DNA of 64,000 nucleotides from an uncultured virus (IMG/VR IMGVR_UViG_3300043466_003414) (taxonomy: Duplodnaviria; Heunggongvirae; Uroviricota; Caudoviricetes), in IMG/VR virus record IMGVR_UViG_3300043466_003414, one strand, 5' to 3'. The position numbers and the translations under genes are program-made. The notes under the pieces were generated by a model that did not search any database, was not told where the DNA came from, and saw only the letters and a list, made by a program, of their open reading frames with translations. Positions 1 to 60,863 of the stretch are shown here, piece by piece. Every line of letters begins with the position of its first letter. The first letter of the stretch is position 1.

Positions 1-191
1 GGGTTGGAGCTGGGGGTTGGGGTTGGGTTTTCTACTCTCGTATGGTTTTTCAAAGGTAAATAAATTGCATTTCTACTCTCGATTGTAATGCAGGTTGAGG
101 TATGGGTTGTGTTGGGGTAAATGATGGAAAAAACTTGACAAAATGAGGGTTATAGTGGAAAATATAAAGGGGTTTGGGGTTGGGTTTGGGG
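1..191 (+). repeat. G-rich (GGGGTT-like) tracts with G-quadruplex potential
   Basis: GGGTTGGAGCTGGGGGTTGGGGTTGGG at 1-27 and GGGGTTTGGGGTTGGGTTTGGGG at 169-191 in an otherwise AT-rich sequence. Confidence 0.7.
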
Positions 192-295
192 TATAGTGGA
201 AATACGCATATTATTAAATTTATAAGTTTAAATATTACAAGATAAAATAAACTTGTAGGTTGATTTTTTGGTTTTGAGTTTGGTTTTGGCAAAAG

Positions 296-397
296 CTGGG
301 ACTTGTTCTGGAACTTGTTTGGAACTTCTTACAACTGATAATCAAATAGTTAATCGTGAAAATGGAACTAAATCTGGGAATTGTTTGGGAAGTGTTT
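296..397 (+). repeat. Degenerate ~11-12 bp direct repeats (TGG[GA]A[CA]TTGTT), iteron/origin-like
   Basis: ctgggacttgtt-ctggaacttgtt-tggaacttctt at 296-330, plus tggaact, tgggaattgttt and gggaagtgttt at 363-397. Confidence 0.5.
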
Positions 398-426
398 GTA
401 AATTAACAATAAATTAACATAATAAT

Positions 427-473
427 TTTGTAGAACCAAAAAACATTAGTACATTTGCTATGAACTTTAAAAC
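427..473 (+). promoter_or_regulatory. Bacteroidota sigma-70 promoter with TGAACTTTAAAAC leader (copy 1)
   Basis: TTTG 427-430, 19-nt spacer, TACATTTG 450-457, leader 461-473. Confidence 0.8.
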
Positions 474-486
474 TAAATAATAAAAA

Positions 487-3374: not shown

Positions 3375-3674
3375 ATGTCAGCACCTAAAAATTTAAAATT
3401 AAAAATCCTTGAATTAAGAAGGCAAGGTAAGAGTTATAGAGAAATTGAAAATGTTTTAGATTGTACTCGCTCAACTATTAGCTTTCATTGTAAACGACAT
3501 AATATTACCGATACTGGTAAAAAAAGATATGCGATTAGCAATGATTTAAAAAACGCAATACACAATTTTTGCAAAGAGCATAAAACAAGTGAAGCTATTA
3601 AATATTTCAATTTATCTAAAAGTACTATTTTTAAGTATAAGAATCTTGAACTAAAACCAGATGAGCAAAAATAA
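3375..3674 (+). CDS. double-HTH DNA-binding protein
   Basis: ILELRRQGKSYREIENVLDCTRSTI and a second HTH, EAIKYFNLSKSTI. Confidence 0.7.
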   Translation: MSAPKNLKLKILELRRQGKSYREIENVLDCTRSTISFHCKRHNITDTGKKRYAISNDLKNAIHNFCKEHKTSEAIKYFNLSKSTIFKYKNLELKPDEQK

Positions 3675-4644
3675 ACCCACTAATAAAAAAGCAACTTCAA
3701 AAGCAAAAAAGCCAAATGGTAGAAAGACTTGGCTTAAAGTTGCTGGAAAGGTACATGAACTAAATAAAAAGCAAAATTTAGGCTGGACTTGGAATGAAAG
3801 TATGCGTTTTGCATCCAAAAAGGTTTATCCTAAATTTAAGGGAAAATCCGTAAGCAAAGTTAGTCTAAAAGATATAGAGCTTGACTTTAAAAACGCTTTG
3901 CAAGAAGGTCAACCGCCAATGCCTACACCTAAAGGTAAATTAAAAGAAATTTGTTTTTCAGCTTTAAATGTTCCAGCGGAAGATTTAATTGAAAGGGAGT
4001 GGTGGACTATTGCAGATGACGATGTATGGATTAATTTCGATTCTAATTTACCAATGCGTTTTGCTTTTGACACTATAATTGATACTGGAATAATCAAGAA
4101 GTCTGAAATGCCTAATATGATGGAAATACGAGAGGATATTCGTAAGTCTGGAATTAAATATGGATTAGTTATTTTTAAAGTTTTGGTACAGCCAAATAAA
4201 AAAGACGATGGTCAACCATGTAGCTATTATGTTTTAGTAACGCTAGAAAACTCAAGTTACGACCAAAACCTTAAAGATGGAGAGATTTACGGACAAATGA
4301 CAGAGAGGGATTTAAGCGAGGAGCAGATTGCACAAAGAGAGGAAAGAAGAAAGCAAAGGGATAAATTAATGAAGCAGAAAGCTTCAAAAAAGCAAGCTAA
4401 AGAGAGAGAACGACCAAAAGAAGTTGAGCCTAAAAGCATTACCAAAACAAAAGCAAAGCCAAAAGAGGAAAGTAGTTTAGAGCTAGAAAAAATTAAATTA
4501 GAAAAATCAAGGGTTGAAGCTTTAAAATCGGTTTTGGATATACTTCGACAAGATTATAAGGATGGTATCTTAACCAAACGCCAGTACTTACAAAGACAAA
4601 AACAAATTATTGAGAAATTTGAACAAGGTGGAGAAATAAGATAA
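3661..4644 (+). CDS. basic/coiled-coil protein ending in FEQGG-EIR; candidate terminal protein
   Basis: Lys-rich N-terminus, charged coiled coil, directly upstream of the PolB-like gene; function inferred. Confidence 0.45.
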   Translation: MSKNKPTNKKATSKAKKPNGRKTWLKVAGKVHELNKKQNLGWTWNESMRFASKKVYPKFKGKSVSKVSLKDIELDFKNALQEGQPPMPTPKGKLKEICFSALNVPAEDLIEREWWTIADDDVWINFDSNLPMRFAFDTIIDTGIIKKSEMPNMMEIREDIRKSGIKYGLVIFKVLVQPNKKDDGQPCSYYVLVTLENSSYDQNLKDGEIYGQMTERDLSEEQIAQREERRKQRDKLMKQKASKKQAKERERPKEVEPKSITKTKAKPKEESSLELEKIKLEKSRVEALKSVLDILRQDYKDGILTKRQYLQRQKQIIEKFEQGGEIR

Positions 4645-4645
4645 T

Positions 4646-5398
4646 ATGAAACGACAATTCAAGAACTTTTCATGCGACAGAACCTACAAAAGATTAGTAG
4701 GGGGCAAACATAATTTTCTAATACGAAAAGGTAGTGAAGTAAACCAAATCATTTTTGGTAAAAACCACTATCTTTTCGCTACCGAGAATAGAAATTTTCC
4801 TAAAAGTAAATTATACCTATTCAAAATGGTTAATGATGATGTAAAGAAATTTATTGATAATAACCCTTTCATTGATTTACCGCCACAAAAAAAGACCCAA
4901 GAATTTAATTTAGAGTATGATATTGATAAGGGTAATTTGACTGGAACAGACCTTGACCATGCCTACTGGAGAATTGCTTATGTAAAAGGATATATTTCTA
5001 AAAATACTTACGAGCATGGAGTTAAAGATGACAAATCTAAAACCATTCGTTTAGCTACTTTAGGGGTTTTAGGAACGGAGCAAAAGTTTGACCGATACCA
5101 AAATGGAGAATATGTTGAAACATTTGTTCATAGGAGAGAGAATAAACCAATGAAGCAAGTTTACAAGGATATACGATTGACCTGCTTTTACATGATGTAC
5201 GAATTATCGGTTCAATTGGGCGAGGATTTTGAAAGCTGGAATACCGATTGCATATACTACCGAGATAGCATTGAAAATAGAAAATTAGTACACGATTTTT
5301 TTGATATGCACAATATGTTATACAAGCAATTAACCAACAATACAATGGATTATTTTGAGGAACTAGAAGATTCCGAAGATGCAGAAAACGTTATTTAA
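4646..5398 (+). CDS. minimal family-B DNA polymerase-like protein (palm/fingers only)
   Basis: Ordered motif A DLDHAYW, motif B KTIRLATLG, motif C WNTDCIYY; no exonuclease domain. Confidence 0.55.
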   Translation: MKRQFKNFSCDRTYKRLVGGKHNFLIRKGSEVNQIIFGKNHYLFATENRNFPKSKLYLFKMVNDDVKKFIDNNPFIDLPPQKKTQEFNLEYDIDKGNLTGTDLDHAYWRIAYVKGYISKNTYEHGVKDDKSKTIRLATLGVLGTEQKFDRYQNGEYVETFVHRRENKPMKQVYKDIRLTCFYMMYELSVQLGEDFESWNTDCIYYRDSIENRKLVHDFFDMHNMLYKQLTNNTMDYFEELEDSEDAENVI

Positions 5399-5477: not shown

Positions 5478-5783
5478 ATGGATTTAACAACAACCCCCTT
5501 TGATATTAAGTTATTAAGGAAAAAATGTAATTTCATAGAGTTTACCGAGAATGGAATTGATATAATCATGCTATCCCCAATAAGCTCTGAAATTAACTCT
5601 GGACATAGATATATGTTTGGAACTTATAAAGACAATAAGTTTTATTGGTTTTTTAACGGAAAGTCGATTGCCAATTCAAGACAAATGATGCGTGATATTT
5701 ATTTTGAAATTACTGAAAACATACTAGATAAAAACCAAGTTGTTTTCGCTTATAAAGGAAATTTGTATGGAAGTAGAATTTAA
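5478..5783 (+). CDS. hypothetical protein
   Basis: ORF preceded by TATATTTG at 5452-5459. Confidence 0.6.
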   Translation: MDLTTTPFDIKLLRKKCNFIEFTENGIDIIMLSPISSEINSGHRYMFGTYKDNKFYWFFNGKSIANSRQMMRDIYFEITENILDKNQVVFAYKGNLYGSRI

Positions 5784-6078
5784 AAAACTAAAAAGCACCT
5801 ATGCGAAAGTAAAATTTTTACTGGAGCAAGTACCAGAATTGTCAACCGATAATGACCGACTTATTTTTACCTTTTATTTTTACGAGCTAGGAAAGGATAA
5901 GATTAACGAAATGAGTGGGTATGATGTGTTTACCTACTTCAATAGTAAATTTACCGATAAAACGGCTAAAATGGAAACTATTTCGAGAGCCAAAAGATTG
6001 GTTTTACAACGAAACCCAAGTCTAAAAAAAGACAAAGCAGAAATAAAAACACTTTTTAAAGTAAAAAATGTTGATTAA
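5740..6078 (+). CDS. hypothetical protein (probable ATG at 5767)
   Basis: ETISRAKRLVLQRNPSL motif resembles a common small phage protein. Confidence 0.55.
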   Translation: MFSLIKEICMEVEFKKLKSTYAKVKFLLEQVPELSTDNDRLIFTFYFYELGKDKINEMSGYDVFTYFNSKFTDKTAKMETISRAKRLVLQRNPSLKKDKAEIKTLFKVKNVD

Positions 6079-6080
6079 TT

Positions 6081-6126
6081 TTTGTGAAACCAAAAAACTT
6101 TTTATATTTGTAGTGAACTTTAAAAC
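6081..6126 (+). promoter_or_regulatory. Bacteroidota promoter with TGAACTTTAAAAC leader (copy 3)
   Basis: TTTG 6081-6084, TATATTTG 6103-6110, leader 6114-6126. Confidence 0.8.
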
Positions 6127-6137
6127 ATAAAATTAAA

Positions 6138-6440
6138 ATGCAAGTTACCTTAATTACAACCGAAGGCGATATTAAAAAAGTAAATATCAAAACCTTTAAA
6201 GATGCAAAGCACTTTGTATCTAAAGACTTCTATGAAAGTCCAATTGAAATTTTATATTTTTCAGATGGCAGACTAATGCTGTTAGACGAAGAAGGTAAGT
6301 TAAAAGGATTGGAATATAACGAAGAAGCTACCAGACGAGCAAAAGAAGATAATTTAATCTATCCAAGTGATTTTATTGTGGGTAATGTGATAATTGTTGA
6401 TGATGTAGATGAGTTTGATAGTTTGGCTTATCAAGATTAA
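6138..6440 (+). CDS. DUF3846-like protein
   Basis: LMLLDEEGKLKGLEYNEEAT...DFIVGNVII. Confidence 0.75.
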   Translation: MQVTLITTEGDIKKVNIKTFKDAKHFVSKDFYESPIEILYFSDGRLMLLDEEGKLKGLEYNEEATRRAKEDNLIYPSDFIVGNVIIVDDVDEFDSLAYQD

Positions 6441-6895: not shown

Positions 6896-7678
6896 ATGAA
6901 AATATCTCAATCATTCGTAAAAGAGTACAGTAAGTACAAGCAAAAAAAGTCATGTGGCTTACAAGTAAAAGCAAAGTACATAGATGGAATTAAATTTCCT
7001 TCAAGCGATGTTATGCAAGTTGGAAACTACTTCGAGTTTATGGCTACTGGTTGCTTACCTAGAACTGGCGAAATTCCAGTTCCAGAAATGGTTTACAAAG
7101 GTACGGCAAAGGAAAAATTATCTACGGACTACGAAAGAGCAAACGCAAGTGCCGAGTTTTTCAAAGTAGTTGCAAAAGAGCTTAACATTGAAATTTTAGA
7201 AACTGGAAAAATAATTACTAAAGATAACCGAACTGGTATTTTAGATATTGTAGCCAAGTTTAATAATAGAATATGCGTTATTGACTTAAAGTATAGCGGA
7301 CTTTTAGATGACAAATGGAACGAAATGGGTTGGGAAACTGAATCATTACCATACAAAGATAATTTAATGGTTCAAGCGGTACACTACACTATTCTTTTAG
7401 CCGAAGTTTGCGAAGTAGACTATGAAGATATTGACTTCTACTTTTTTGTGTTCAATTCAAAAGACCCATTGGATGCCAAAATCATAAAAGTAAATATTGA
7501 CCCAGATGTTTTTGAAAGCCACTTACAAGCAGTTGATAAAATTTACGAGGAAGTGGTTTTGAATAATCATAACTTCAAGCCTTATCCAAGCTTAAAACTA
7601 TGTAAAAGTTGTCCGTTAACCGATTGCAAACACAAAATAACTATTCCTACAATAGAGCAGGTTTACTACACAATATGA
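6896..7678 (+). CDS. PD-(D/E)xK exonuclease (RecB/Cas4-like)
   Basis: GILDIV...VIDLKY, Q-x-x-x-Y motif, N-terminal Cys plus C-terminal CKSC-x3-C; next to RecT. Confidence 0.8.
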   Translation: MKISQSFVKEYSKYKQKKSCGLQVKAKYIDGIKFPSSDVMQVGNYFEFMATGCLPRTGEIPVPEMVYKGTAKEKLSTDYERANASAEFFKVVAKELNIEILETGKIITKDNRTGILDIVAKFNNRICVIDLKYSGLLDDKWNEMGWETESLPYKDNLMVQAVHYTILLAEVCEVDYEDIDFYFFVFNSKDPLDAKIIKVNIDPDVFESHLQAVDKIYEEVVLNNHNFKPYPSLKLCKSCPLTDCKHKITIPTIEQVYYTI

Positions 7679-7926
7679 TAAACGAAAAAGAAATAGATTA
7701 TTTAGTTAACTTAACTCAAGCAGATACTCAATACTATATTCGCTACAAATCACAATTAAAAAAGTTTGCAGTAGATAATAGAGCTGAAATAACCAAAGCA
7801 AAAATGGTTAAGATTTTTTCAGAAATAGAAACAATAACATTGCATATTCAAAAACTCAAAAACCAAGAACAAGAACTTTTAAAACTTTTAGATAACATTT
7901 ATTATGGAAACAACTCAAGAGAATAA
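7675..7926 (+). CDS. hypothetical coiled-coil protein (ATG at 7675 preferred)
   Basis: ATGA overlap with the nuclease stop codon. Confidence 0.55.
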   Translation: MINEKEIDYLVNLTQADTQYYIRYKSQLKKFAVDNRAEITKAKMVKIFSEIETITLHIQKLKNQEQELLKLLDNIYYGNNSRE

Positions 7927-8758
7927 CCAAACACCAGCAAAACGTGAACTATCTTTAATTGATAAATTTACTCAAACCATGAGTATTTACGAGCAAAAAA
8001 ACCTTGCGGAATTGCTTGAAAATTCAAGTTTTACCCCAGCAAAATTTAAGCAAGTCGTAATTACTGAAATTAAGAAAAATGTAAAATTGCAACAAGCTTT
8101 TTTGCAAAACCCAGCGAGTTTGTTTGCCAGCATATTACATTGTGCTGAATTAGACTTATCTCCGAGCCAAATGGTAGGCGAGTTTTTCTTTATTCCTTTC
8201 AAAGATACCATAACACCAGTTTTAGGATATAAGGGTCTTATAACGCTTCTATTGAGGTCGGATAAAATTAAGAAGATTTGGACTGAAGTGGTTTATGAAG
8301 ATGATGACTTTATTTACGAAATGGGTTTAGAGCCAAAATTAGTGCATATACCTAATCATGATGCCGATAGAAGCAATAGCAAGATTAAGTTTGTCTATGC
8401 GTGTGCAAAGCTAGAAGATAACGAAGTTACTTTTAAGGTTATGTCAACAAAAGAAGTAAGAGGTATTATCAATACGCTCAAAGTTTCAAATGAATTGTAC
8501 TTTAATGAAAAAAAAGACCCAGAGAATTGGATGATTAAAAAAGTTGTGTTAAAACAATTAGCTAAAACCTTACCAAAGCAAGATGACCGATTGAAAAAAG
8601 CTATTTCTACCGATGATAATGTAGAAGGAGGTAGTTATTTAGTAATTGATGACAACGACAACGTTAAATTAGTACAAGGAAACATTATAGGCACAAGAAA
8701 AAATAGCCTTTACAATGCTTTAAACGTAAAAAATGAAGCTGAACTATTGGATAGTTAA
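7904..8758 (+). CDS. recT: RecT family single-strand annealing protein
   Basis: LDLSP...GEFFFIPF...LGYKGLI...VVYEDDDF...MIKKVVLKQLAKTLP. Confidence 0.9.
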   Translation: METTQENNQTPAKRELSLIDKFTQTMSIYEQKNLAELLENSSFTPAKFKQVVITEIKKNVKLQQAFLQNPASLFASILHCAELDLSPSQMVGEFFFIPFKDTITPVLGYKGLITLLLRSDKIKKIWTEVVYEDDDFIYEMGLEPKLVHIPNHDADRSNSKIKFVYACAKLEDNEVTFKVMSTKEVRGIINTLKVSNELYFNEKKDPENWMIKKVVLKQLAKTLPKQDDRLKKAISTDDNVEGGSYLVIDDNDNVKLVQGNIIGTRKNSLYNALNVKNEAELLDS

Positions 8759-8889: not shown

Positions 8890-11094
8890 TTATATACCTC
8901 CATCTATAATTATCCAGTTGTTCGGAGCAGAAGCCAATACTAATTTACCAGCACTCGCCCCAGCAGTATATTTAATAGTGCCAAAATTTATGAGTAAGTT
9001 TGGTTGTACTGATAATAAACTCCAACCATTATAAATTGCATCCAAATTAGTTGTACTATAATTTGCAAATGTTTTATTTAGCATAAAATTAGAAAAATTA
9101 GTAACATTAGATATGTTCCAAGAGCCAATATTTTGATTAAATGCCGTTGCAGTAGAAAACATTGAATTCATATTTGTAACACTACTAACATTCCAAGAAG
9201 ATATATTTCCATTAAAAGATGAAGCACCACCAAACATAATAGCCATATTTGTAACACTACTTACATCCCAACTATTTAAGTTTTGATTAAATGCAGTTGC
9301 ATTATTAAACATAATTCCCATTTCTGTAACACTACTAACATTCCAAGAACCTATATTTTGATTAAATGCAAATGCGTTAGCAAACATTCCAAACATATTT
9401 AAAGCACCACCAACATTCCAAGAACCTATGTTTTGATTAAATACTGATGCACCAGAAAACATTTGACCAAAATTTGTAACACTACTAACATTCCAAGAAG
9501 ATATATTTCCATCAAAAGATGAAGCACCACCAAACATAGCAACCATACTTGTAACACCACTTACATCCCAGCTATTTAAGTTTTGATTAAATGCAATTGC
9601 ATTTGTAAACATTGCAAACATATTACCTACATTACTTACATTCCAAGAACCTATGTTTTGATTAAATGCTGATGCTCCTTGAAACATTTGTGTCATATCT
9701 ATTACACTAATTACATTCCAAGAAGATATATTTCCATTAAATGAATTTGAATTTAAAAACATTTGTACCATGTTCGTAACATTACTTACATTCCAACTAT
9801 TTAAACTTTGATTAAAAGCAATTGCATCACGAAACATATTTTGCATATTTGTAACACTACTTACATTCCAGCTATTTAAACTTTGATTAAATGCAGTTGC
9901 ACCACGAAACATTCCAGTCATATTTATTACACTACTCACATCCCAAGAATCAATATTTTGATTAAAAGCAATAGCATTAAAAAACATAAATGACATATTT
10001 GTTACATTAGTAACATTCCAAGAGCCAATATTTTGATTAAATACTGATGCCCCTTGAAACATTTGGCTCATAATAGATACGCTACTAACATTCCAAGAAG
10101 TTATATTTCCATTAAAAGATGAAGCACCACTAAACATAGCAGTCATAAGTGTAACATTACTTACATCCCAACTATTTAAGTTTTGATTAAATGCAATTGC
10201 ATTTATAAACATATTTTGCATATTTGTAACACTACTCACATCCCAACTATTAATACTTTGATTAAATGTATTAGCATTGTTAAACATATTATTCATAGCT
10301 ATTACATTACTAACATCCCATGAATCAATATTGTTTATTGTTGGAAAAGCATAAGAACCAAACATATATTCACAATTGGTACAATTGCCAAAATTTAAAA
10401 CATCTGAAACGGAAGTCAAGTTAAGATTTGTGCAACCTCTAAATTGACCACCAAGATTGCCAATTAATTCAAAATCGCCCCAACTTGCTACTGATAAAAT
10501 TTTTAATTTATCTCCAGCATCATTAAATCTAAAACCTTTACATTCTCCATCAATTGAAATAGTATATGTTCCAGAACTTGTATAAGTATGTGTTACTTCA
10601 GCTTGATTCCATGCGGTTATTGTGTCAGTATTTCCATCTCCCCAATTAACAATAAAATTATATGAACCACCAGAAAATAAAGGCAATGATACTTGATTTG
10701 AAGCACTAGAACCTCCAGAAATATTTGCGGTATTCCAAGTTGAAACAAAAGGCAAACCTATCGTAATATTAGAATATGTATAAATACTTGATGATACATA
10801 AATTGTCGTTCCAGAATAGTTAAAAAGTCCTATTCCTAAAGTATTTAGTGCATCTACAACGCCTTGAATACTTTGAGTAACAACACTAGCAGTTAATGTT
10901 GTTGGTGTTGGATTTGAAGTTGAAGCATAGGTAATATTTACGCTATTTACCCCAACAAAACTTTGTGTTGATAAATCAAAAGAATATAAAATATTTGAAT
11001 TATTAGCACTATTTGGATTTGGTATTACTCCAAGAATAGAAATATCTTGATTAAAAGAAGTGTTATTAGCTATTTTTATATTTATACTTTTCAT
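8890..11094 (-). CDS. PKD-like + BspA/DUF285 surface-repeat protein; probable virion spike/receptor-binding protein
   Basis: VNWGDG...HTYTSSGTYTI PKD motif; about 17 tandem 25-aa FNQNIGSWNVSSVTNMxxMF repeats. Confidence 0.85.
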   Translation of the reverse strand: MKSINIKIANNTSFNQDISILGVIPNPNSANNSNILYSFDLSTQSFVGVNSVNITYASTSNPTPTTLTASVVTQSIQGVVDALNTLGIGLFNYSGTTIYVSSSIYTYSNITIGLPFVSTWNTANISGGSSASNQVSLPLFSGGSYNFIVNWGDGNTDTITAWNQAEVTHTYTSSGTYTISIDGECKGFRFNDAGDKLKILSVASWGDFELIGNLGGQFRGCTNLNLTSVSDVLNFGNCTNCEYMFGSYAFPTINNIDSWDVSNVIAMNNMFNNANTFNQSINSWDVSSVTNMQNMFINAIAFNQNLNSWDVSNVTLMTAMFSGASSFNGNITSWNVSSVSIMSQMFQGASVFNQNIGSWNVTNVTNMSFMFFNAIAFNQNIDSWDVSSVINMTGMFRGATAFNQSLNSWNVSSVTNMQNMFRDAIAFNQSLNSWNVSNVTNMVQMFLNSNSFNGNISSWNVISVIDMTQMFQGASAFNQNIGSWNVSNVGNMFAMFTNAIAFNQNLNSWDVSGVTSMVAMFGGASSFDGNISSWNVSSVTNFGQMFSGASVFNQNIGSWNVGGALNMFGMFANAFAFNQNIGSWNVSSVTEMGIMFNNATAFNQNLNSWDVSSVTNMAIMFGGASSFNGNISSWNVSSVTNMNSMFSTATAFNQNIGSWNISNVTNFSNFMLNKTFANYSTTNLDAIYNGWSLLSVQPNLLINFGTIKYTAGASAGKLVLASAPNNWIIIDGGI

Positions 11095-11585
11095 ATCTTA
11101 TTTTTTCTAATTAAGTAAGTTACTAAAATTCCAATTGCAACAATTGAACCCCACTTAAATACTTGGTTACTAATTAGTTTTTTATCGGTAGCAAAATTAA
11201 CATAATGCTCACAATTAAAATTAATAAAATCGTATTTATAGCCTTTTAAAGCTTCATACATTTTGCTTAAATCTTTACTCCCTAAATCGCTTTTAGTAAC
11301 GGAAATAATATCCCTACCTTTCATATATTTTTCAAGTGGTTCGCAAATTAAATTACCTCCATTTGAATTTATTTTGTCGGTTTGTAAATGATAAATGTAA
11401 AGTTCATCGCCTTGTTTTTCTACAATTCCATAATGATATAAAATCGGCAAAACCTCAACCTTTAATTTAACTAAATCTCCAGTTTCAAGTTTGGATATTG
11501 TGTGCTGTCTGTTTTGAATTTTAATTTCGTCTAAACTACTTAAACTATAAGACATCGCTAAAGTTTTTGAAAAAATCATTATCAA
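11091..11585 (-). CDS. LRAT-like permuted NlpC/P60 enzyme with C-terminal TM anchor
   Basis: YHYGI...IYH...YDFINFNCEHYVN (H-H-C triad); C-terminal TM plus RKNK; true start probably downstream of 11585. Confidence 0.75.
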   Translation of the reverse strand: MIMIFSKTLAMSYSLSSLDEIKIQNRQHTISKLETGDLVKLKVEVLPILYHYGIVEKQGDELYIYHLQTDKINSNGGNLICEPLEKYMKGRDIISVTKSDLGSKDLSKMYEALKGYKYDFINFNCEHYVNFATDKKLISNQVFKWGSIVAIGILVTYLIRKNKI

Positions 11586-15395: not shown

Positions 15396-15629
15396 CTAAC
15401 GTATTATAGCTACTCCAGTATCAGTCCAACTAACATAATCAGCCTTACAGCTAATGTGGTGCTTATTTACCATTTCATTTTTTTGTGGGTCGAAAACATC
15501 ATCCCTTGTGGTAAATGTAGGCACGTTAATTTGTATGTCCGAAGCCAAAAATTCAGCACCATCAATTATTAATCGCCAAAACATTTTGTCATCGGTGCAA
15601 CTATGATTGTATCTTATTTTTATGTCCAT
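15396..15629 (-). CDS. hypothetical protein
   Basis: Operonic ORF. Confidence 0.6.
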   Translation of the reverse strand: MDIKIRYNHSCTDDKMFWRLIIDGAEFLASDIQINVPTFTTRDDVFDPQKNEMVNKHHISCKADYVSWTDTGVAIIR

Positions 15630-16033
15630 TATAATTTTCCTTCTTTTCTTAATTCTTCTCTAATTTTTGTTGCCGAAATATTACCTAAAACAGTTGGGGG
15701 TACATGCTCAATAATATCATATCCTACACCTCTACCAAACTCTACCGAGCAAATATCTGGAATAATCATAACTTTTACTACATCGCAATTAACAAGTAAC
15801 GCATATTCCATTTCTATTACCTCTTTAACTTGTTCAGCAGTATATGGATTTTTGTCATCAATTTCGCCATCTCTGATGCAAATTAAAAGATTTTTACCCT
15901 CATCTATTGCTTGTTGAAACAAATGTTTATGACCCAAGTGTAATGGTTGAAATCTTCCTATAAACATTGCATATTGATTTGGTTTTGGCTCTAAAGAAGA
16001 TTTAACGTGAACAATTTTTTCCCAGTTTTCCAT
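15629..16033 (-). CDS. HxGH cytidylyltransferase-like nucleotidyltransferase (candidate minimal ATP sulfurylase)
   Basis: GRFQPLHLGH...ISATKIRE; lies between cysC and DUF2061. Confidence 0.8.
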   Translation of the reverse strand: MENWEKIVHVKSSLEPKPNQYAMFIGRFQPLHLGHKHLFQQAIDEGKNLLICIRDGEIDDKNPYTAEQVKEVIEMEYALLVNCDVVKVMIIPDICSVEFGRGVGYDIIEHVPPTVLGNISATKIREELRKEGKL

Positions 16034-16035
16034 TT

Positions 16036-16488
16036 TTAAAATTTTAGGTTGTTAAGAATTTCGTTTAAAGTTTCTAGTTCAGAATCGTTTGTAGTGTCAA
16101 CGCTTACAAAGTTTTCTAAAGGCGGTTCGTAATTAGCTACATGGAAATTTTCACGACCTCTAATTTCAGTAGTGTGAATATAAAACTCTTTGCAGTCTAA
16201 TTCTGATTTTAATTTTTCCCTTAAATCCCTAAACGGACTTACTAAAGAAATAATAATGTGATTTAAAGGATTTTGTTTTTGCAAGTATTTTGCAATAGCG
16301 TGAGCAGTTTCAATGTTTTTTCTTCTACCTTGCTCCGAATAGTCTTTATTATCTAAAATTTCTCTTAAATCATCTCCATCAATGTTATATACTTTGCCAT
16401 CAATAAAAGAAGTTTGTAAGGCGGTTTTTAGATAATTCGCAATAGTGGTTTTTCCGCTATGCGGTTGACCAGTTAATATTATTATCAT
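16036..16488 (-). CDS. cysC: adenylylsulfate (APS) kinase (ATG at 16488 preferred)
   Basis: LTGQPHSGKTT, IDGDDLR, GRRKNI, SLVSPFRDLR, YEPP. Confidence 0.88.
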   Translation of the reverse strand: MIIILTGQPHSGKTTIANYLKTALQTSFIDGKVYNIDGDDLREILDNKDYSEQGRRKNIETAHAIAKYLQKQNPLNHIIISLVSPFRDLREKLKSELDCKEFYIHTTEIRGRENFHVANYEPPLENFVSVDTTNDSELETLNEILNNLKF

Positions 16489-16519
16489 GTTTCTTGGTTT
16501 TATTTCAAACAAAAATAAC

Positions 16520-16527
16520 TATATTTG
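16520..16527 (+). promoter_or_regulatory. -7 promoter element TATATTTG
   Basis: Upstream of the isolated plus-strand gene at 16551. Confidence 0.6.
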
Positions 16528-16550
16528 TATTATAAACCAAGAAAATTTTT

Positions 16551-18689
16551 ATGAAAACAAAAATCCTATTTTACGCCCCCCATTTAAGTACTGGTGGGAT
16601 GCCCCAATTTCTACTTAAAAGAATTGAAACTCTAAAAGATAATTACGAAATATTTGTTGTAGAAAACCAGTGCGTTTCCGACAAATATGTAGTTCAACGA
16701 AACAAAATAATCAATTTAGTAGGCGAAAAAAACTTCTTTACAACTATCGGCAAAAACCTTATCAAAGTTATTAAAGACAATAAAATTGATATTGTGCATT
16801 TGGAACATGAAGCTGAAGGTTTTGACTATGATTTGATGAAATTATTGTACGCTGACAATAGAAAATACAAAATAGTTGAAACGTGCCACAATGTAGGTTT
16901 TATTCCACAACACAAAGTTTTTTATCCAGATGCTTTTGCTTTTTGTTCTCCTTTTCATTTGGAAACTTTTGAGCATATAAAGGCAAAAAAGCAACTTATA
17001 ATGTACCCTATTGAAAAGCACAATGTTTATTCCGTTACAAAAAAGGCAAAAGCTTTGCAATTAGGTTTTAGAGAAAAAAAAGTAAATGTTTTATCAGTAG
17101 GTTTATGGTGCGAAAACAAAAACCAATCTAAAGTTTTAGAAGTAGCTAAAAATTATCCAGATTATGATTTTCATATAGTAGGAAACCAAGCCGAAAACTT
17201 TGAAAGTTATTGGAAACCATTAATGGAAAACATACCTAGTAACGTAAAAGTTTGGGGAGAAAGAGAAGATATTTCGGATTTTATGTTGGCTTCGGATATT
17301 TTTTTCTTTCCAAGCAAAAATGAATGTAACCCTATTGTACTTCGTGAAGCTATTGGTTATGGTTTGACTATCTATGCTAATAACTTATCTCAATATTGCG
17401 GTATGTTTGATGGTTTTATACAGCCAATACATTTTGAATTGAAAAAGAAACTATCTCCAAATCATCCAGATACTTCGATTCAATTTAAAAAAGACCATTT
17501 AGATTTTTACAATTCCCTTATTGAAGAAAAACCAAAAAAACAACCAAAAAATAGAAATTTCACTATTAACAACCATTTCGTTGATGGTGCTTTTTTAGAA
17601 ATTAACGGCAACTCAAAAGATAAATTTAAAGTTGAATTTTTTGATGGGGAAAATTTGTTTTACGAAAATACTATCAATTGTAATTCATGGGTAAAGCTAA
17701 ATAGAAAATACTATACCAATTACAAAATAAAAGTTTCACAAATTAAAAAATTAAAGGTTTACGACTTTGAGAACGTAATTGAAACAAAAGTCATTTTAGA
17801 TGAGCAATTATCCTTAAAAGGCAAAAAGGTTATGATTAGCTTTGAAAGTAGTTCATTGGGCGATACTTTGGCTTGGATGCCTTATTGTGATGAGTTCCAA
17901 AAGAAACACGATTGCGTTTTATTCGTTTCTACCTTTAAAAACTTTTTATTCGAGGGTCAATACCCTAACATTAATTTTATTAAGCCTGCTGAAGTAGTTA
18001 CTAATTTGTACGCTAAATACGATTTAGGTTGGTTTTACGATACCAATAAAGAACCAGTTTTACCAAACACAATACCATTACAACAAACCGCTACAAACAT
18101 ATTAGGATTAGATTTTTCGGAAATAAAACCAAAATTAAATTTTGAGCCGAAAAAAGGTAATAAAGATAGTGTTCCTGCAAAATATGTTTGTATAGCACCA
18201 GATTCAACTGCTGGTTGTAAGGAGTGGGATGCTGTAAATTGGGAAATTTTAGTAGATATGTTGGTTGACGAGGGTTATCAAGTCGTAAATGTATCTTTAA
18301 ATTCAAGATACAAACTTAAAAATGTTTATTGCCCAGAAAACTTATCGCTAGAAAGCACTATGCAAATAATACATTTTGCTAAATTCTTTATTGGTTTGTC
18401 AAGCGGTTTATCATGGTTAGCTTGGTCTTTAAATAAGCACGTTTATATGATTGCTAACTTTACAAAAGCCGACCATGAATTTCAAAAAAATTGCACTAGA
18501 TTCACAAATGAAAACGTATGTAATGGTTGCTGGAATAACAAAAATTTCAAATTCGACAAAGGTAATTGGAATTGGTGTCCGATTTGGGATGGTTACGATA
18601 AGCAATTTGAGTGTCAAAAAGGAATAAACCCATTTTGGGTGCTTGAGGAAATTAAAGACAATATAAATTACAAAAGGCTACATAATTAG
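16551..18689 (+). CDS. GT4 glycosyltransferase fused to an Aah/TibC-like protein O-heptosyltransferase
   Basis: N-half PHLSTGG...FPSKNECNPIVLREA (GT4); C-half SSSLGDTLAWMPY...FIGLSSGLSWLAW...CNGCWN...CP...FECQK. Confidence 0.85.
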   Translation: MKTKILFYAPHLSTGGMPQFLLKRIETLKDNYEIFVVENQCVSDKYVVQRNKIINLVGEKNFFTTIGKNLIKVIKDNKIDIVHLEHEAEGFDYDLMKLLYADNRKYKIVETCHNVGFIPQHKVFYPDAFAFCSPFHLETFEHIKAKKQLIMYPIEKHNVYSVTKKAKALQLGFREKKVNVLSVGLWCENKNQSKVLEVAKNYPDYDFHIVGNQAENFESYWKPLMENIPSNVKVWGEREDISDFMLASDIFFFPSKNECNPIVLREAIGYGLTIYANNLSQYCGMFDGFIQPIHFELKKKLSPNHPDTSIQFKKDHLDFYNSLIEEKPKKQPKNRNFTINNHFVDGAFLEINGNSKDKFKVEFFDGENLFYENTINCNSWVKLNRKYYTNYKIKVSQIKKLKVYDFENVIETKVILDEQLSLKGKKVMISFESSSLGDTLAWMPYCDEFQKKHDCVLFVSTFKNFLFEGQYPNINFIKPAEVVTNLYAKYDLGWFYDTNKEPVLPNTIPLQQTATNILGLDFSEIKPKLNFEPKKGNKDSVPAKYVCIAPDSTAGCKEWDAVNWEILVDMLVDEGYQVVNVSLNSRYKLKNVYCPENLSLESTMQIIHFAKFFIGLSSGLSWLAWSLNKHVYMIANFTKADHEFQKNCTRFTNENVCNGCWNNKNFKFDKGNWNWCPIWDGYDKQFECQKGINPFWVLEEIKDNINYKRLHN

Positions 18690-18702
18690 TAGCCTTTTTT
18701 TT
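18672..18702. terminator. bidirectional terminator
   Basis: AAAAGGCTAC-ataatta-GTAGCCTTTT plus a T-run, between convergent genes. Confidence 0.75.
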
Positions 18703-18728
18703 ATGTAAACAAATTTGTTTATATCAAT

Positions 18729-19547
18729 TTATAAATATCCAAAATAATCATAAAACCACTTATAATGGTTTCTTATGTTCATGGATAGTTCATACCCTAG
18801 AACATCTAAATAATCGTCTGGCTTGCGTTCAAATTTTGGTCTTAACGTATGGTCGCCATAAATTCCATGAATTGTATCGTTTTCTTGAGTGTATTGCGTT
18901 ACATTTTCAAAATCGTGCTTGTCGTAGTAAGGCACTTCAAAATGCTCGTAAATACGCTTCATTTCGTTTTCTGGGTTATCCATTAAATCTTCATAACGAA
19001 CAAATAAAATGTTTTTATCTATTCCTTGTTGCATTATATCCCTTAATCGGTCTATTGCAACTCCTACTGGAACTCCACTTGCCCAAATATCAATTCTTTT
19101 ATCTAATGTAGTTCCTACTAATTGTGGTACGTTTTGGATATGGTTTTCTTTATGTGGATTTTTACGGAAGTTTTTTTCCATTGAAGCATAAATACAACGT
19201 ATATCCCTAACCATGCAAATTATTTTTGGATTAGGAAATATCATATTCAATAAACCATGATTAACTCCCCACTCTCGACTTTTATCAACAACGAAAGGCT
19301 TATCGGTCAAGCCTTTAAAAAAACCTTGCATACCGCTTCTACAAAACTCTACAAACGCATTTTCCATTTGTTTTGGGTCTTGAGATATAAACGCTTGAGA
19401 ATGGTTATAATTGTTTTTTGAAGCCATGATTAAATCTACCAAACCACTTGTAGGCGTAGAGTAAAAATCTGGATTTTGAGCAATTATGTTTTGAATTAAT
19501 GTACTACCGCTTCTGGGTAGTGAGGAATTATAAAATATTTTTTTCAT
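18729..19547 (-). CDS. PAPS-dependent sulfotransferase
   Basis: SLPRSGSTL (5'-PSB), KIICMVRD..IYAS (3'-PB), VRYEDL. Confidence 0.88.
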   Translation of the reverse strand: MKKIFYNSSLPRSGSTLIQNIIAQNPDFYSTPTSGLVDLIMASKNNYNHSQAFISQDPKQMENAFVEFCRSGMQGFFKGLTDKPFVVDKSREWGVNHGLLNMIFPNPKIICMVRDIRCIYASMEKNFRKNPHKENHIQNVPQLVGTTLDKRIDIWASGVPVGVAIDRLRDIMQQGIDKNILFVRYEDLMDNPENEMKRIYEHFEVPYYDKHDFENVTQYTQENDTIHGIYGDHTLRPKFERKPDDYLDVLGYELSMNIRNHYKWFYDYFGYL

Positions 19548-19935: not shown

Positions 19936-22900
19936 TTAATTTATTTTTTTAGGTTGTAATATTTCTACACCATTCCATCCTTTAATAGCATCTTTATCTT
20001 TTCTTGTTCCTATGATAAGAACGTTATACTCCAAATCCTCGTTAGCAAATATAATTGCTTTTGTTAAATCTGCATTTACTTCTCCATAAGCAATTCCAAA
20101 TCCTTTTTTAGGCGTTACCCAAATTTGAGTGTTTTCATTTAGGAATTTAAAATAATCTGGCAATTCAATTTCAGCAAAACCATCTACCACTTTAACAACA
20201 TATCTATAAATATTATCTCCAGCAGTAGGCGATTCAACAAACGAGTGTTGTAAGTAATGTGTTTTGTTTTTTATAGGGTCTGGGTGCTTAATTCTAAAAG
20301 TACCACTTGTTTTTGATAATGCTTGAACAAATGTTGTATCATTAGCCGATGCAGAAATGGATGAACCTATAATATGTGAGTTTGTATATCCATTTATTGT
20401 ATTATAGCTACCACCTAAAATAGAATTATAATCAGCATAACTGCTACTACTAATTATTTTATTACATCTACCGCCACCAATAAAATTAAATGAAGCATTA
20501 TTATTAGGATATGCTTTTATTATATTATAACTTCCACCAACTATTGCATTAAATCGGCTACAAGCAGAACCCGAATAATAATTAAGTATTTTGTTAGCGT
20601 TCCCTCCTAAAATAGAATTATGTCTTGTATAGTCTATATTACCAGTTTTTCCACAAATTTGGTTTGAGCAACCACCTCCAATAATATTAAGACAAGAGTA
20701 TGTCATAATATTAGAAGCACCACCACCAATAGTATTACCACTTCCATAACCGAAAACATTACCAGTACCACCACCTATTGTTCCATATTCAGCATTAGTA
20801 CCAATGGCATTATATTTACCCCCACCAATAAATGATTGAATAGCATTGATGGTATTTAATTGTCCACCGCCAATTGTTGAACAAGCTCCCAATCCTCTAT
20901 TACATAAACCACCCCCAATAAACGATAATCTACCAGCATAACAACAACTACTAACACCAGTAAAAGCACCAGTTGTTGTATTTAATGTACCACCATAAGT
21001 ATTATGACCAATACCACCGCTTATAGTTGCACCAAAAGAGCAACATTCATTTGTTGGAGATTGAATTATATTTGTGTTACCGCCACCTATTGTAGAGTAT
21101 CTTGCGTTTGTTATGTTGCAATAACCAGCTCCAATAAATGAAAATCTACTACCATCCACGTCATTACATCGACCACCTACAATGGCTGAATAAAGTGAAA
21201 ATTTAGCAATACAATTTTCTTTACCGCCTAAAATAGCAGTAAAAGATTCTCCTACACGATTATAACAACCACCCCCAACAAATGAACCTCCACTACTTGC
21301 TACATTACAAAAACCACCACCAATGAATGAATAATTACCACTACTAACATTACAACAACCGCCTACAATAGAATTTGCAATACCATTTATAGTATTAGTA
21401 CTACCGCCACCAATAAAAGAAAGTGGTTGGTTAATTCTATTACCTGCACCGCCTCCTATAATTGATTGTTGTTCACATATAATATTACCACCACCACCAA
21501 CAATAGAACTATCACTCCCATACGTTCCTGCGTTTATTATATTGCCACTACCTCCTCCTATGAAATGAGTACTTCCAAGATTGATGTAATTATTAAATCC
21601 ACTTGCTATTCCATTAGCACCACCAGAATTACTACCGCCAATAATTCTATTCGATAAACCACCACCTATTGTTGAAAAACATTGCTGATTATTATTAAGG
21701 CAACCACCACCAACTGATGAACTTTGACAAGTAGCACGATTACAATTACCACCAGCAATTGTTGAAAAATAACCAGTAGCAGTATTACATCGACCACCAC
21801 CAATAGTAGATATATTACCAGCAACACAATTTCTATAACCACCACCTATTGTTGATAATCTACCAGCATTACAACAAGTAATTGCACCAGTCAAAGCACC
21901 AGTAGTATTACTAAATGTTCCCCCAGCAGTATTATGTCCTATACCACCGCCTATTGTTACACCAAAAGAGCAACATTCGTTTGTTGGCGATTGAATAATA
22001 TTTCTTTGACCACCACTAATTGTTGAAAATCTTGAATTTGTTATGTTGCATTGACCTCCACCTACTGATGAATAACTACCCGATGCCGTATTACAAAAAC
22101 CACCGCTAATTGTAGAATTTGCACCGCATGAAGTATTAGAATAACCACCTCCCACAGTTGTTCCTTTAGCCGTTGAAATATTATCTCTACCCCCTAAAAT
22201 TGAAGAAAAAGAAATATCTGCAAAATTGTTTCTTCCACCTCCAATAAAAGAACCAACTCCACAAACAACATTGCATAAACCACTACTAACCGATGATATA
22301 CAACCACTCGCACTATTCAAATTACCACCGCTAATTGTTGAATAACAACCAGATGCAGTATTAGATTTACCACCACTAATTGTTGAATATTTATTAGATG
22401 CAACATTACAATAACCCCCACCAACAAATGAAATATAACCACAAACAGTATTATTTTTACCTCCTGCCACATTTGAGTAAGAAGAACAAGCACAATTTTG
22501 AAATCCACCACCTATCGTTGCATAAGTTCCAGTATTTATGTTCTGACCACCACCTCCAATTGTAGAAGTAATACCTGATGCTAAATTTTGATAACCACCA
22601 CTTATTATGGAATTTAAACCGCCAGAAGTGTTGTTTTTACCACTTAAAGAGCCACTATAATCTCCATTTGAAGCATTACCAACGCCAGTTCTAACTGATG
22701 AACCAACACAAGCACCTAAAATAATAACGGCACTTGAACCTACGTTTGTTCCGCTACTTCCACTAGAACCAGAAGTTCCAGTAGTTCCACTTGTTCCATT
22801 AGAACCATTAGAGCCACTTGTACCATCAATACCAGAAGTACCACTTGTTCCGTTAACACCAGAAGTTCCATTAGCACCACTTGTTCCATTAGTACCACTC

Positions 22901-38498: not shown

Positions 38499-39317
38499 TT
38501 ACAAATAGTATTTAAGGATTCTTTCTTTATGAAATTTAACTGCATCTGCTGGAGTAAATTTTTTCTTTCCACCTATCAAATCCTTTTGTTGTAGCATAGG
38601 AGTAATTAGTTTTCGATAATTATGCGAAATATATTCGTCAATAATTGGCTCTAGCTTTTTTCTATCTGCACCTTTTATCTTTTCGTCATCAATATCCACA
38701 TATACAAATATCCTTTGATTATCGTATTCGTGGTATTCCTTATTTGTATAGAGTTCAACTATTTTGAACATTTCGTATTTATCCTCAAACTTATTTCTAT
38801 GCTTATCTACGCTATCGGTATTTTTATGAAAACGCATCCAATTAAGGTTTTGCCAAATTTTCGGAGAAACCCTACCAATAGATTGAAAGTGCAAAATAAT
38901 ATCCGTATCGGTATGTCTATTTGTTACAATAGCACCAACAAGGTCATTTGGTAAATAATCCGAAATATATCGGTTAATATCCTCAATAAGCAAAAGTCCA
39001 TTTCTAAAGTCAAATAAGATTTTGAACAATGTTTCTTGAACATCATTAATGGTCATTCTTGTTCCGTTATCGTGGAAAGGTCTAATCCTTCTTATTTCAA
39101 TTTTAGGGTGCATAGAAAACTTTTGCACATCCGATATTTTTAACGCTTTAATATCTTCATACTCATCGTTAACATCAAGTATAAGCACTCGTCTTGGAGC
39201 AACCCCTTTTGTTGGGTTGCCTTGAACATATTGTTGAAGCATACGTTTAGTCGTAAAGGTTTTACCACAACCTTTACGACCAACCGCTACTCCTAATTTT
39301 GGTTCTCTTTCTTCCAT
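38499..39317 (-). CDS. A32/FtsK-HerA-type genome packaging ATPase
   Basis: Walker A GRKGCGKT, Walker B LLLIEDI, arginine-finger RH, HFQS; about 270 aa with no nuclease domain. Confidence 0.75.
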   Translation of the reverse strand: MEEREPKLGVAVGRKGCGKTFTTKRMLQQYVQGNPTKGVAPRRVLILDVNDEYEDIKALKISDVQKFSMHPKIEIRRIRPFHDNGTRMTINDVQETLFKILFDFRNGLLLIEDINRYISDYLPNDLVGAIVTNRHTDTDIILHFQSIGRVSPKIWQNLNWMRFHKNTDSVDKHRNKFEDKYEMFKIVELYTNKEYHEYDNQRIFVYVDIDDEKIKGADRKKLEPIIDEYISHNYRKLITPMLQQKDLIGGKKKFTPADAVKFHKERILKYYL

Positions 39318-39864: not shown

Positions 39865-39936
39865 TTTTAGCACTTGCCCTTGCAATCGGTTTTAAAGTTC
39901 ATAGCAAATGTAATAATATTATTTTGGTTTTACAAA
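39865..39936 (-). promoter_or_regulatory. Bacteroidota promoter with TGAACTTTAAAAC leader (copy 4) plus a 28-bp leader repeat
   Basis: Minus strand TTTG 39933-39936, TACATTTG 39905-39912, leader 39889-39901; 39865-39892 recurs at 59543-59570. Confidence 0.8.
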
Positions 39937-39959
39937 ATTATTTTACCATTTTTTTTACA

Positions 39960-51100: not shown

Positions 51101-51155
51101 GATTTTCGCTTAATTGACTTTGGTCAATGCTTTCAAATTTTTGTTTTATACTCAT
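48153..51155 (-). CDS. 1000-aa modular protein punctuated by about 13 [FYLM]xxGG motifs (putative virion-core polyprotein)
   Basis: LADGG, YADGG x2, FMDGG, FEQGG, YAEGG, FDKGG, FADGG, FAKGG, YATGG, YDGGG, FEVGG, MSGGG. Confidence 0.7.
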   Translation of the reverse strand: MSIKQKFESIDQSQLSENQKEILGKIKTATKDFTITDQKALDKVDSALDNIITKLKATNPQAIKGESKKQEPKAKKEVVKKEPKSETKKPKKAKKEAGGKRTIFSIAKEIRKADESWEDAKARAKKVMETEKEDTTKKMKSETDKLLAFIKRRKELEGLSGTSVKKDSKIEALPKGRRISKKGWKNQYGESEGGRVYYENRDNRTDRLAPSFDDKIYLADGGYAGGGYVVIAKSEKGGGFVMSKPTTKAKAEKLKSLLPKIDGETNEVMTIGKATKLSGLVGKQYLKYADGGAIIGTPETPLARGLDMHYTGLVGETGAMSSGEMFMDGGSTGLPAGAEQQFVNYYLGEGASAGIFEQGGSLVDGYLTDPNFGDFQAGIYAEGGSLGNHGLKQGDQIIKTMSGGVQKVKTRTGDIVYVNLANGYRGAEPPLPFDKGGRTTERRFVNHGQDYEVRYAKDKPKRRGYGYADGGTIIGNPETPLGRDLGISYTGLVGETGAMSSGEMFADGGTIDAFQMRTVRGVDNKPTEVLTDEQKVQFAKGGEIVKGQEVGLKFDSEYHKDNLDVFVVEEIKNGNYRLRGKKNGNRYSVPKERIIVYSYATGGGVGKSFRKKRNEYLEKLGQKEGDVWDKIGANSGADIRNSDKLLKAYAEGVQEMLQKEEVGKGSFDQEDYDFYTDENWHLFNEFLVWNGYYDPEITKTEKAWREDRFKDPKYRNYVSNPKIISLSGGSKSKSTNYVAKDKISTITIVKDGKEIVLSSKDVLNGVNLYDGGGKLKNDHTYFAKRYIKEVVMEDGDKLKPSNGYWVKKSALDGFKNKVSLAKKPKFKVDDLVYNKRTKSVGIVRIAEEKGEVKTDADGNVSITELEVYNPLKFKHQSKSKVAPSTQKEIDERGLFKPFSKFEVGGKTTFKEKATAIAKNFEGKKVEPKYQKEYGKVYDKAEAKEVGNKIAGSQKAKYDSKMSGGGTTKRGGAMVLAKQIRKEGESWASALKRANEQMRKK

Positions 51156-60853: not shown

Positions 60854-60863
60854 TTTTAAAAAT

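Follow-up and report, generated by a model that had tools for sequence, protein, structure and literature searches.

An undescribed minimal PolB-like enzyme module in uncultured tailed phages and its putative role at linear genome ends

The 64,000-nucleotide stretch of DNA analyzed here, referred to in its full length as the window, stems from an uncultured virus of the class Caudoviricetes (IMG/VR record IMGVR_UViG_3300043466_003414). Close to its left end, two adjacent genes encode a partner protein of 327 amino acids (aa) and a polymerase-like protein of 250 aa, which together constitute an undescribed minimal PolB-like enzyme module. It is highly probable that the smaller product is an active, minimal family-B-like polymerase within an obligate two-protein module, and a terminal-protein or end-patching role of the pair is plausible, albeit putative. 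An earlier note, made from the letters of the sequence, had read the two genes as a palm-only family B DNA polymerase (PolB) coupled to a candidate terminal protein (TP) of a linear genome. Both open reading frames (ORFs) lie where it had placed them, and the gap between them is indeed a single base, since the stop codon of the partner gene ends at position 4644 and the ATG of the polymerase-like gene starts at 4646:

3661..4644, plus strand: obligate partner, an ORF of 327 aa with 89 homologues in a word-indexed search
4646..5398, plus strand: minimal family-B-like polymerase core of 250 aa, comprising a small N-terminal beta/alpha part (residues 1-50) followed by a palm with short fingers

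The 250-aa product carries its motifs in the order that had been proposed, namely TDLDHAYW (with D102), SKTIRLATLG (K132), and WNTDCIYY (D201). In an alignment of 84 members of the polymerase-like family (19-83 % identity to the window protein), the presumed catalytic residues D102, K132, and D201 are the only invariant positions besides Met1, and Y107, W108, A111, I117, V62, and M184 are kept in at least 90 % of the members. Because the three residues hold throughout the alignment, the motifs are not chance look-alikes, and the refuting condition set by the earlier note, a lack of conservation of the catalytic aspartates among homologs, did not materialize. The family encompasses 382 clusters at E <= 1e-3 and 125 clusters at E <= 1e-10 (HMMER search of 1.84 billion representatives; clusters defined at 50 % identity), and as its members, among the matches listed, mostly measure 230-270 aa, the size of 250 aa appears to be native rather than the result of truncation. 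The first 6 kb of the window were present in metagenome runs of lake water and other aquatic sources, which belong to 17 studies, and a tblastn search of 50,697 isolate phage records with four queries returned no member of the family. A literature search, with supplements outside its scope, yielded no description of a stand-alone ~250-aa PolB-like protein or of its partner, and neither is described in passages of PMC7544198, PMC12926913, PMC11348598, PMC7824862, and PMC11161782.

An AlphaFold2 model computed from the family alignment (pLDDT 92.8, pTM 0.85) predicts the topology of an RRM-type palm, in which strand 98-103 terminates in D102, K132 opens a helix (129-140) between D102 and D201, and D201 is located in the turn of a hairpin (195-199/202-206). 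Between these elements, the fingers helix is followed by a beta-hairpin (146-163), which lies where TPR2 is placed in the phi29 polymerase and may correspond to it, and then by a long helix (167-194). The core is closed by helix 209-221 and strand 226-229, and residues 1-50 fold into a small sheet accompanied by one helix. As regards the exonuclease and TPR1, the earlier claim that 250 aa leave no room for an exonuclease or TPR subdomains agrees with the data: the 97 residues ahead of motif A hold no invariant acidic residue as would befit a DEDD exonuclease, and the 30 residues from D102 to K132 accommodate no TPR1; a thumb is absent as well, as only helix 231-247 (pLDDT 58-69) follows strand 226-229. 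The model thus shows a palm with one Asp ending its first strand (motif A) and another in a hairpin turn (motif C), and the invariant K132 was likened to the motif B lysine of KxxxNSxYG solely by its position and by eye. A comparison by eye with motifs of the phi29 family, i.e., invariant columns of a 22-sequence alignment of protein-primed PolBs (pPolBs), likewise relates D[IL]NHAYW to DVNSLYP of phi29 (with D, N at +2, and Y at +5) and TDCI to TDSI. The placements of D102, K132, and D201 correspond to metal-ligand positions of RRM-type palms (PMC7824862).

Fold comparisons point in the same direction. A Foldseek search of the PDB gave nothing at E <= 1e-3, but ranks 1-49 were nearly all occupied by right-hand polymerases, with reverse transcriptases (RTs) having the lowest E-values and the best TM-scores belonging to Pol alpha and Pol II. 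In BFVD, nine matches were found at E <= 1e-3, the named ones being mostly viral DNA polymerases and one of them annotated as 'Divergent family B DNA polymerase'. The nearest Pfam-bearing clusters in a language-model atlas were DNA_pol_B_2 (0.88) and DNA_pol_B (0.85), which serve as leads only, because both scores fall below the 0.9 line. The first Asp of motif C is missing from the window protein. It is also lost in the PolB_SITDG group (PMC7544198) and, among active PolBs, in those of mavirus, pipolins, and others (PMC11161782), and given these reported active enzymes its absence is not disqualifying.

The association with the partner is exceptionally constant. Across 47 viral loci (46 found with the polymerase-like family plus the window), a partner gene was detected upstream on the same strand in 37 with a first hidden Markov model (HMM) and in all 47 after one iteration, the ten additional partners having lain outside the training set. 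The same arrangement was seen in all three loci from cellular genomes, i.e., metagenome-assembled genomes labelled Sediminibacterium, Ignavibacteria, and Gammaproteobacteria, so that the tight coupling originally suggested from the window holds well beyond it. In all viral loci apart from L044 and L050, in which one short ORF intervenes, the partner abuts the polymerase-like gene directly, and physical binding of the two products may be presumed. Three polymerase-like members bear N-terminal (P0096, P0101) or C-terminal (P0133) extensions resembling the SHOCT-like tail of the partner. Since hhalign matched them to the partner tail motif but weakly (E 0.008 / 0.026, probabilities 5 % / 2 %; Pfam E 0.28), they are a weak lead, by which these sequences might hint at a physical coupling of polymerase and partner.

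Among 131 distinct partner sequences, R161 is invariant and T142 (129/131), C98 (129/131), Y189 (128/131), and S52 (125/131) are nearly so. The protein is basic in residues 1-90 (isoelectric point (pI) 10.4), acidic in residues 91-215 (pI 4.6), and again basic in the Lys-rich stretch 216-275 and the tail. In its model (pLDDT 85.7, pTM 0.51), three helices at the N-terminus precede a four-stranded alpha/beta domain (131-195), to which a long Lys-rich helix and a C-terminal helical pair are appended. Pfam SHOCT (PF09851) was recognized in 6 of 31 diverse partners (best E 7.4e-5) and SHOCT_2 in 5 of 31, with no such match in the window partner itself, which also found no naming match among PDB sequence profiles, Pfam, PHROGs, or NCBIfam. 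A retropepsin-like 'DTG' (IIDTGII) had suggested an aspartic protease, a candidate that was rejected because its Asp varies across the wider family, in which only T142 is kept.

With regard to known TPs, the partner adjoins a polymerase-like gene in all 47 viral and 3 cellular-genome loci, and relatives have linear genomes with inverted terminal repeats (ITRs; see below). TPs of different virus families lack sequence similarity to one another and have at least three separate origins (PMC11161782). Those of PRD1 and adenovirus are described as a central four-stranded sheet with two helices and N- and C-terminal helical extensions, in which the linking residue sits in a loop ahead of the last strand, near a Gly or Pro; a PRD1-type TP structure has not been solved according to the same source (PMC11161782). 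The partner is alike in its central sheet, its helical extensions, and a DDGxPCSY(189)Y loop before the last strand, a resemblance that does not amount to a test. Judged by conservation in the acidic middle domain, T142 and Y189 would be candidate residues for a covalent link to the 5' nucleotide.

The linear genome with ITRs that the earlier note had postulated finds support in relatives of the window, three records of which have measurable ITRs of 123-653 nt, and the terminally redundant alternative was not encountered: among 35 relatives, IMG/VR lists direct terminal repeats (DTRs) in none and ITRs in three, with nine records being at least 90 % complete. According to blastn comparisons of contig tips, G009 carries a 653-nt ITR (100 % identical) at both extreme ends, G003 one of 123 nt (100 % identical), and G017 one of ~132 nt (99 % identical). 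Partial arrangements occur in G010, whose left positions 1-114 recur inverted at 792-905 from the right end, and in G002, where the inverted counterpart of left 1-120 lies 879-998 from the right end and that of left 174-280 again further in. The latter contig (locus L014; CheckV completeness 100 %) encodes a polymerase-like protein 79 % identical to that of the window. No inverted end repeats were found within 3 kb of the ends of G005, G006, G015, G016, and G018, and a protelomerase was detected in 0 of 17 relatives. Lengths of 114-133 nt come close to the top k-mer size of assemblies, and the ~114-133-nt tip repeats may thus be remnants of longer ITRs that collapsed at the top k-mer; if so, the lengths in G002, G010, and G009 imply a true ITR of ~0.65-1.0 kb.

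The window itself opens with the following region, which is probably the inner part of an ITR:

1..400, no strand assigned: non-coding terminal region, G-rich on the plus strand (32-38 % G in 1-200 compared to 13 % overall)

Here, window positions 292-486 align with 176-371 of G002, and the window begins ~116 nt to the left of the G002 start. A G-rich inward strand with irregular GGGTT/GGGGTT-like repeats was observed in window positions 1-300 and at the ends of G010 (L070), G016 (L074), G018 (L076), and G015 (L073), the first 200 nt of G016 containing 47 % G and 18 G-runs. Of 24 contigs with a length of 45 kb or more, 18 carry the polymerase-like gene, which is usually inward-reading, within 9 kb of an end; contig G001 begins within the last codons of this gene.

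A further claim, that the bulk of the genome is replicated by another machine, is supported by family searches of the relatives, in which controls behaved as expected. PolB (PF00136), PolA (PF00476), pPolB (PF03175), Pol III alpha (PF07733), and Prim-Pol (PF09250) were each found in 0 of 17 relatives and DnaB_C (PF03796) in 0 of 27. A DnaD-like initiator, Phg_2220_C (PF09524), which is likewise recognized by phrog_428 ('replication initiation protein') and by a PHROG of DnaD-like helicase loaders, is encoded by 15 of the 17, including 9 of 9 near-complete records; in those near-complete records for which the position of the polymerase-like gene was worked out, it sits in the terminal arm opposite the module, as exemplified by G002:

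G002, 58.7-63.4 kb (L014 8496-9131, 12503-13252), minus strand: opposite arm with DnaD-like initiator, DnaQ/RNase_T exonuclease, DNA methyltransferase, and DUF932

Given an encoded DnaD-like initiator and no detected polymerase, Prim-Pol, or DnaB of the families named, bulk synthesis probably falls to the host replisome, which in turn leaves an end-replication problem for a linear genome with ITRs. The DnaQ-type exonuclease (RNase_T, PF00929) of G002 was also considered as the missing half of a split PolB and rejected, as it is of the RNase_T/DnaQ type and occurs in just 5 of the 17 relatives.

Taken together, the palm core, the constant pairing, the ITR ends, and the lack of any other DNA polymerase of the families searched suggest that the pair may copy or patch genome ends. 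We tentatively propose, at somewhat less than even confidence, that the partner acts as a TP and the pair thereby serves protein-primed initiation or the patching of ends. The 250-aa protein would be a drastically reduced family-B-like polymerase, consisting of a palm and a two-helix finger stub yet catalytically competent, which would work as an obligate pair with the 3661-4644 product from an early replication/recombination arm, located within a few kb of one terminus of a linear ITR genome. Short-range DNA synthesis at the genome ends would be its most likely job: the partner may grip the ends via its basic regions and oligomerising tail and provide the priming hydroxyl from its acidic alpha/beta domain (Y189 or T142), to which the mini-polymerase would add the first nucleotides, or the latter may fill a terminal gap. 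What was observed is the family with its invariant Asp, Lys, and Asp, the palm fold of family B type, the constant gene pairing, the ITRs of relatives, and the lack of the other polymerase families searched, whereas catalytic activity, physical binding, protein priming, and an action at the ends are inferred.

Established systems provide partial precedents. In phi29 and PRD1, the TP gene lies directly ahead of the polymerase gene near the genome end, as does the partner here. However, the polymerases of phi29 (Salasmaviridae) and PRD1 (Tectiviridae) measure 553-572 aa, whereas the 250-aa protein lacks the exonuclease, TPR1, and thumb; their TPs are unrelated in sequence to the partner; their genomes comprise 15-19 kb as compared to 60-100 kb here; and, unlike in these viruses, a DnaD-like initiator suggests bulk synthesis by the host replisome. 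In the linear replicons of Streptomyces (Tpg/Tap), replication starts from an internal origin with the cell replisome, and a TP primes fill-in at the ITR ends. This end patching employs cellular polymerases and other proteins, and its likeness to the pair is conceptual. The TP-vOTU-PALM protein of mavirus and Tlr1-like helicase-palm proteins have lost the exonuclease and the first Asp of motif C as well and are considered active (PMC11161782). Mavirus-type proteins carry a deubiquitinase-type protease between priming domain and palm (PMC11161782); here, the partner ends in ...FEQGG just before the polymerase-like gene. Mavirus and Tlr1-like proteins keep TPR1 and TPR2 and are larger, multidomain products of eukaryotic Preplasmiviricota, in contrast to the stand-alone palm of bacterial viruses described here, and the atlas labels clusters related to the polymerase-like protein as Uroviricota.

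A number of findings weigh against this proposal. As to the polymerase, the window protein has no Pfam, PHROG, or NCBIfam match, 0 of the 84 members match a polymerase family in Pfam or PHROGs, the family profile has 0 matches among PDB sequences at E <= 10, and hhalign comparisons with phi29 polymerase, PRD1 polymerase, and the 22-sequence pPolB alignment gave probabilities below 1 %. The original assignment to PolB therefore stands for palm fold and motifs and fails in every sequence-profile test, membership in PF00136 or PF03175 included. As sequence methods are blind to any relationship and the exonuclease, TPR1, and thumb are absent, we file the protein as family-B-palm-like and not as a demonstrated family member. 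As to the partner, hhalign comparisons with the TPs of PRD1 and phi29 gave probabilities of 0.1 %, and fold searches (VIA, Foldseek, atlas), in which the terminal helices dominated and the middle domain was barely covered, retrieved only helical-hairpin look-alikes. None of its hydroxyl residues is kept without exception, T142 and Y189 included. The strand order of its model is beta-beta-alpha-beta-beta, unlike the beta-alpha-beta-beta-alpha-beta order of the little-finger fold. As to the ends, whole or partial ITRs were seen in just 5 of the 10 relatives examined there, and those of ~114-133 nt lie near the k-mer size and need a longer true repeat as explanation. Base 1 of the window is no proven terminus, because a contig of a related population continues at least 91 nt further left, an extension that holds more G-rich repeats; at the other side, the window ends short of the opposite terminal arm of G002, its own right terminus being located outside. 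Finally, the polymerase-like gene faces the nearer end in L048, L051, and L052.

The neighboring genes, counted as homologous clusters within 5-kb flanks of the 47 loci, add a further point of this kind. They form an early arm in the order helix-turn-helix (HTH) protein, partner, polymerase-like protein, small ORFs, PD-(D/E)XK exonuclease, and RecT:

3375..3674, plus strand: small HTH protein of 99 aa (Pfam HTH_38/HTH_23), just upstream of the pair; 25/47 loci
5478..5783, plus strand: 101-aa ORF with no family match, just downstream of the polymerase-like gene; 29/47 loci
6896..7678, plus strand: PD-(D/E)XK recombination exonuclease (PDDEXK_1 8e-5, phrog_69); 33/47 loci
7904..8758, plus strand: RecT-family single-strand annealing protein (Pfam RecT 3e-32, phrog_148 6e-48); 31/47 loci

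RecT and the exonuclease offer a recombination route by which ends could be maintained in the absence of protein priming. Accordingly, the mini-polymerase might extend or fill the 3' ends of exonuclease/RecT intermediates, be it in recombination-dependent replication, gap filling, or ITR-to-ITR end repair, with the partner acting as a DNA-binding, oligomerising accessory or processivity subunit instead of a primer. The co-orientation of the pair in one arm with exonuclease (33/47) and RecT (31/47) speaks for this view, as do the basic Lys-rich regions and SHOCT-like tail of the partner and its dissimilarity to known TPs. Exonuclease and RecT are, however, missing from about one third of the loci, and the partner from none; many phages with RecT and exonuclease manage without a polymerase of their own, and the association with genomes that end in ITRs and never in DTRs would be left unexplained. 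On balance, we consider this alternative unlikely, though worth keeping in view.

Quite unlikely, in our estimate, is a third option, in which the 250-aa protein is some other palm-fold nucleotidyltransferase (RT-like, a cyclase or signalling enzyme, or a terminal transferase adding the G-rich end repeats) or a non-catalytic subunit akin to UL8. The accessory subunit of the herpesvirus helicase-primase (chain C of 9ut1, 9yc9, and 9ndz, which we take to be UL8) is indeed derived from PolB, but is regarded as catalytically inactive at ~750 aa, whereas Asp, Lys, and Asp are invariant here.

Equally, the protein could be a primer-independent initiator, i.e., a primase-like PolB that begins DNA chains de novo, either at an origin or at the ends, before the host replisome takes over, with the partner targeting it to DNA. 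That we hold to be very unlikely: primer-independent PolBs (piPolBs) reach full size and possess exonuclease and TPR regions, the protein has no detected sequence similarity to the pPolB and piPolB group, and host DnaG would presumably suffice once the DnaD-like initiator loads the helicase. In its favor, no primase or Prim-Pol was found in 17 relatives, the fold is of the family B type, and the first Asp of motif C is missing as in the PolBs of pipolins (PMC11161782), for which primer-independent synthesis has been reported.

Least probable of all is that the ITR ends are covalently closed hairpins or assembly artefacts to which the pair is unrelated. In favor of this view, four of the five inverted repeats measure 114-133 nt, near a typical top k-mer, five of the ten relatives examined lack inverted end repeats, and the 22 runs with window sequence consist entirely of contigs in which molecule ends are not visible. 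Against it, the perfect 653-nt ITR at both tips of G009 exceeds any k-mer, G002 and G010 carry arms of ~0.9-1.0 kb on one side, protelomerase was found in 0 of 17 relatives, and DTRs in 0 of 35, including 9 records of at least 90 % completeness.

Returning to the pair as a putative TP-polymerase module, the FEQGG tag that had been noticed at the C-terminus of the partner was confirmed, the protein ending in ...KFEQGGEIR. Exact FEQGG occurs three times in the 99 non-overlapping ORFs of the window as compared to 0.013 expected, and 0 of 2000 shuffles reached three; for the looser pattern [FLIMVY][EDQ]xGG, no enrichment was seen (9 versus 5.4 expected, with 184 of 2000 shuffles reaching 9). Two further tagged proteins and one possible processing enzyme are encoded as follows:

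48153-51155, minus strand: orphan protein of 1000 aa with IFEQGG at residue 356
56025-58943, minus strand: polyvalent protein of 972 aa (DUF5824, DUF5661, ART-PolyVal) with the C-terminus RFEQGGKL
11091-11585, minus strand: protein of 164 aa that contains the motifs HYGIV and NCEHY and has a hydrophobic helix at its C-terminus, kept in nine related loci

FEQGG may be a common processing or packaging signal of the partner and the 972-aa and 1000-aa proteins. A KGG tail is invariant in 27 closer partner homologues and absent from 11 of 31 diverse partners, so that a GG tag is not essential to the module. The only lead towards a tag protease is the 164-aa protein, which matches Pfam PPPDE (E 1.9e-4, below the cut-off) and LRAT weakly, no OTU domain having been found. 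PPPDE enzymes are di-glycine isopeptidases, and candidate identities of the protein are a GG-specific peptidase and a PLAAT-like lipid enzyme.

In its boldest form, to which we assign a low probability, the proposal would run as follows: the 250-aa protein represents the smallest natural polymerase core (~240 residues, palm plus finger stub) and depends on a fourth kind of TP; the two patch the telomeres of phages of 60-100 kb with ITRs of ~0.65-1 kb and leave bulk replication to the host replisome; and FEQGG, which two giant virion-type proteins also bear, marks the partner, which travels on the DNA ends, for a papain-like GG-peptidase or for packaging.

The rest of the window (~30 % G+C) is phage-like, with YopX and endolysin-type enzymes besides RecT, the PD-(D/E)XK exonuclease, the polyvalent protein, and a collagen-like tail fibre. 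A canonical large terminase, portal, or major capsid protein gave no match in the window or in the last 20 kb of G002. Further features are:

423-485, 2109-2171, and 6076-6138, plus strand, and inverted at 39889-39961: intergenic repeat of ~60 nt ahead of gene blocks, containing TTTG ... TAnnTTTG
8890-11094, minus strand: DUF285 (BspA-like) repeat protein of 734 aa, encoded with 15 tandem 75-nt DNA units
15629-19547 and 59576-63547: two sugar/sulfate gene clusters
19936-24450, minus strand: collagen-like tail fibre protein of 1504 aa, with long runs of 9-nt (Gly-X-Y) repeats
38499-39317, minus strand: P-loop ATPase of 272 aa, 56-100 % identical in 25 loci, with weak HerA/DUF87 and terminase-PHROG matches and no nuclease domain

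When considered as a packaging enzyme of the phi29-gp16 type, the 272-aa ATPase aligned over no more than the Walker A motif. The TTTG ... TAnnTTTG pattern of the ~60-nt repeat presumably represents the Bacteroidota sigma-A promoter consensus, and the 123-nt ITR of G003 bears a similar element. The sugar/sulfate clusters, which may modify the surface or the virion, encode a cytidylyltransferase-like protein, APS kinase, a 712-aa double glycosyltransferase, a sulfotransferase, further glycosyltransferases, and a hexapeptide transferase.

As the polymerase-like family is abundant (382 clusters) and yet absent from the isolate records searched, the replication strategy of a whole clade has gone unannotated. 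If the enzyme is active, it would push the minimum size of a templated DNA polymerase further down and show which parts of family B are dispensable beside a partner, which bears on both polymerase evolution and enzyme engineering. Should the pair prime or patch ends, replication of ends by protein priming would extend beyond small viruses of the phi29 and PRD1 types to large phages that otherwise rely on the host replisome, and would parallel, on the viral side, the end patching of Streptomyces.

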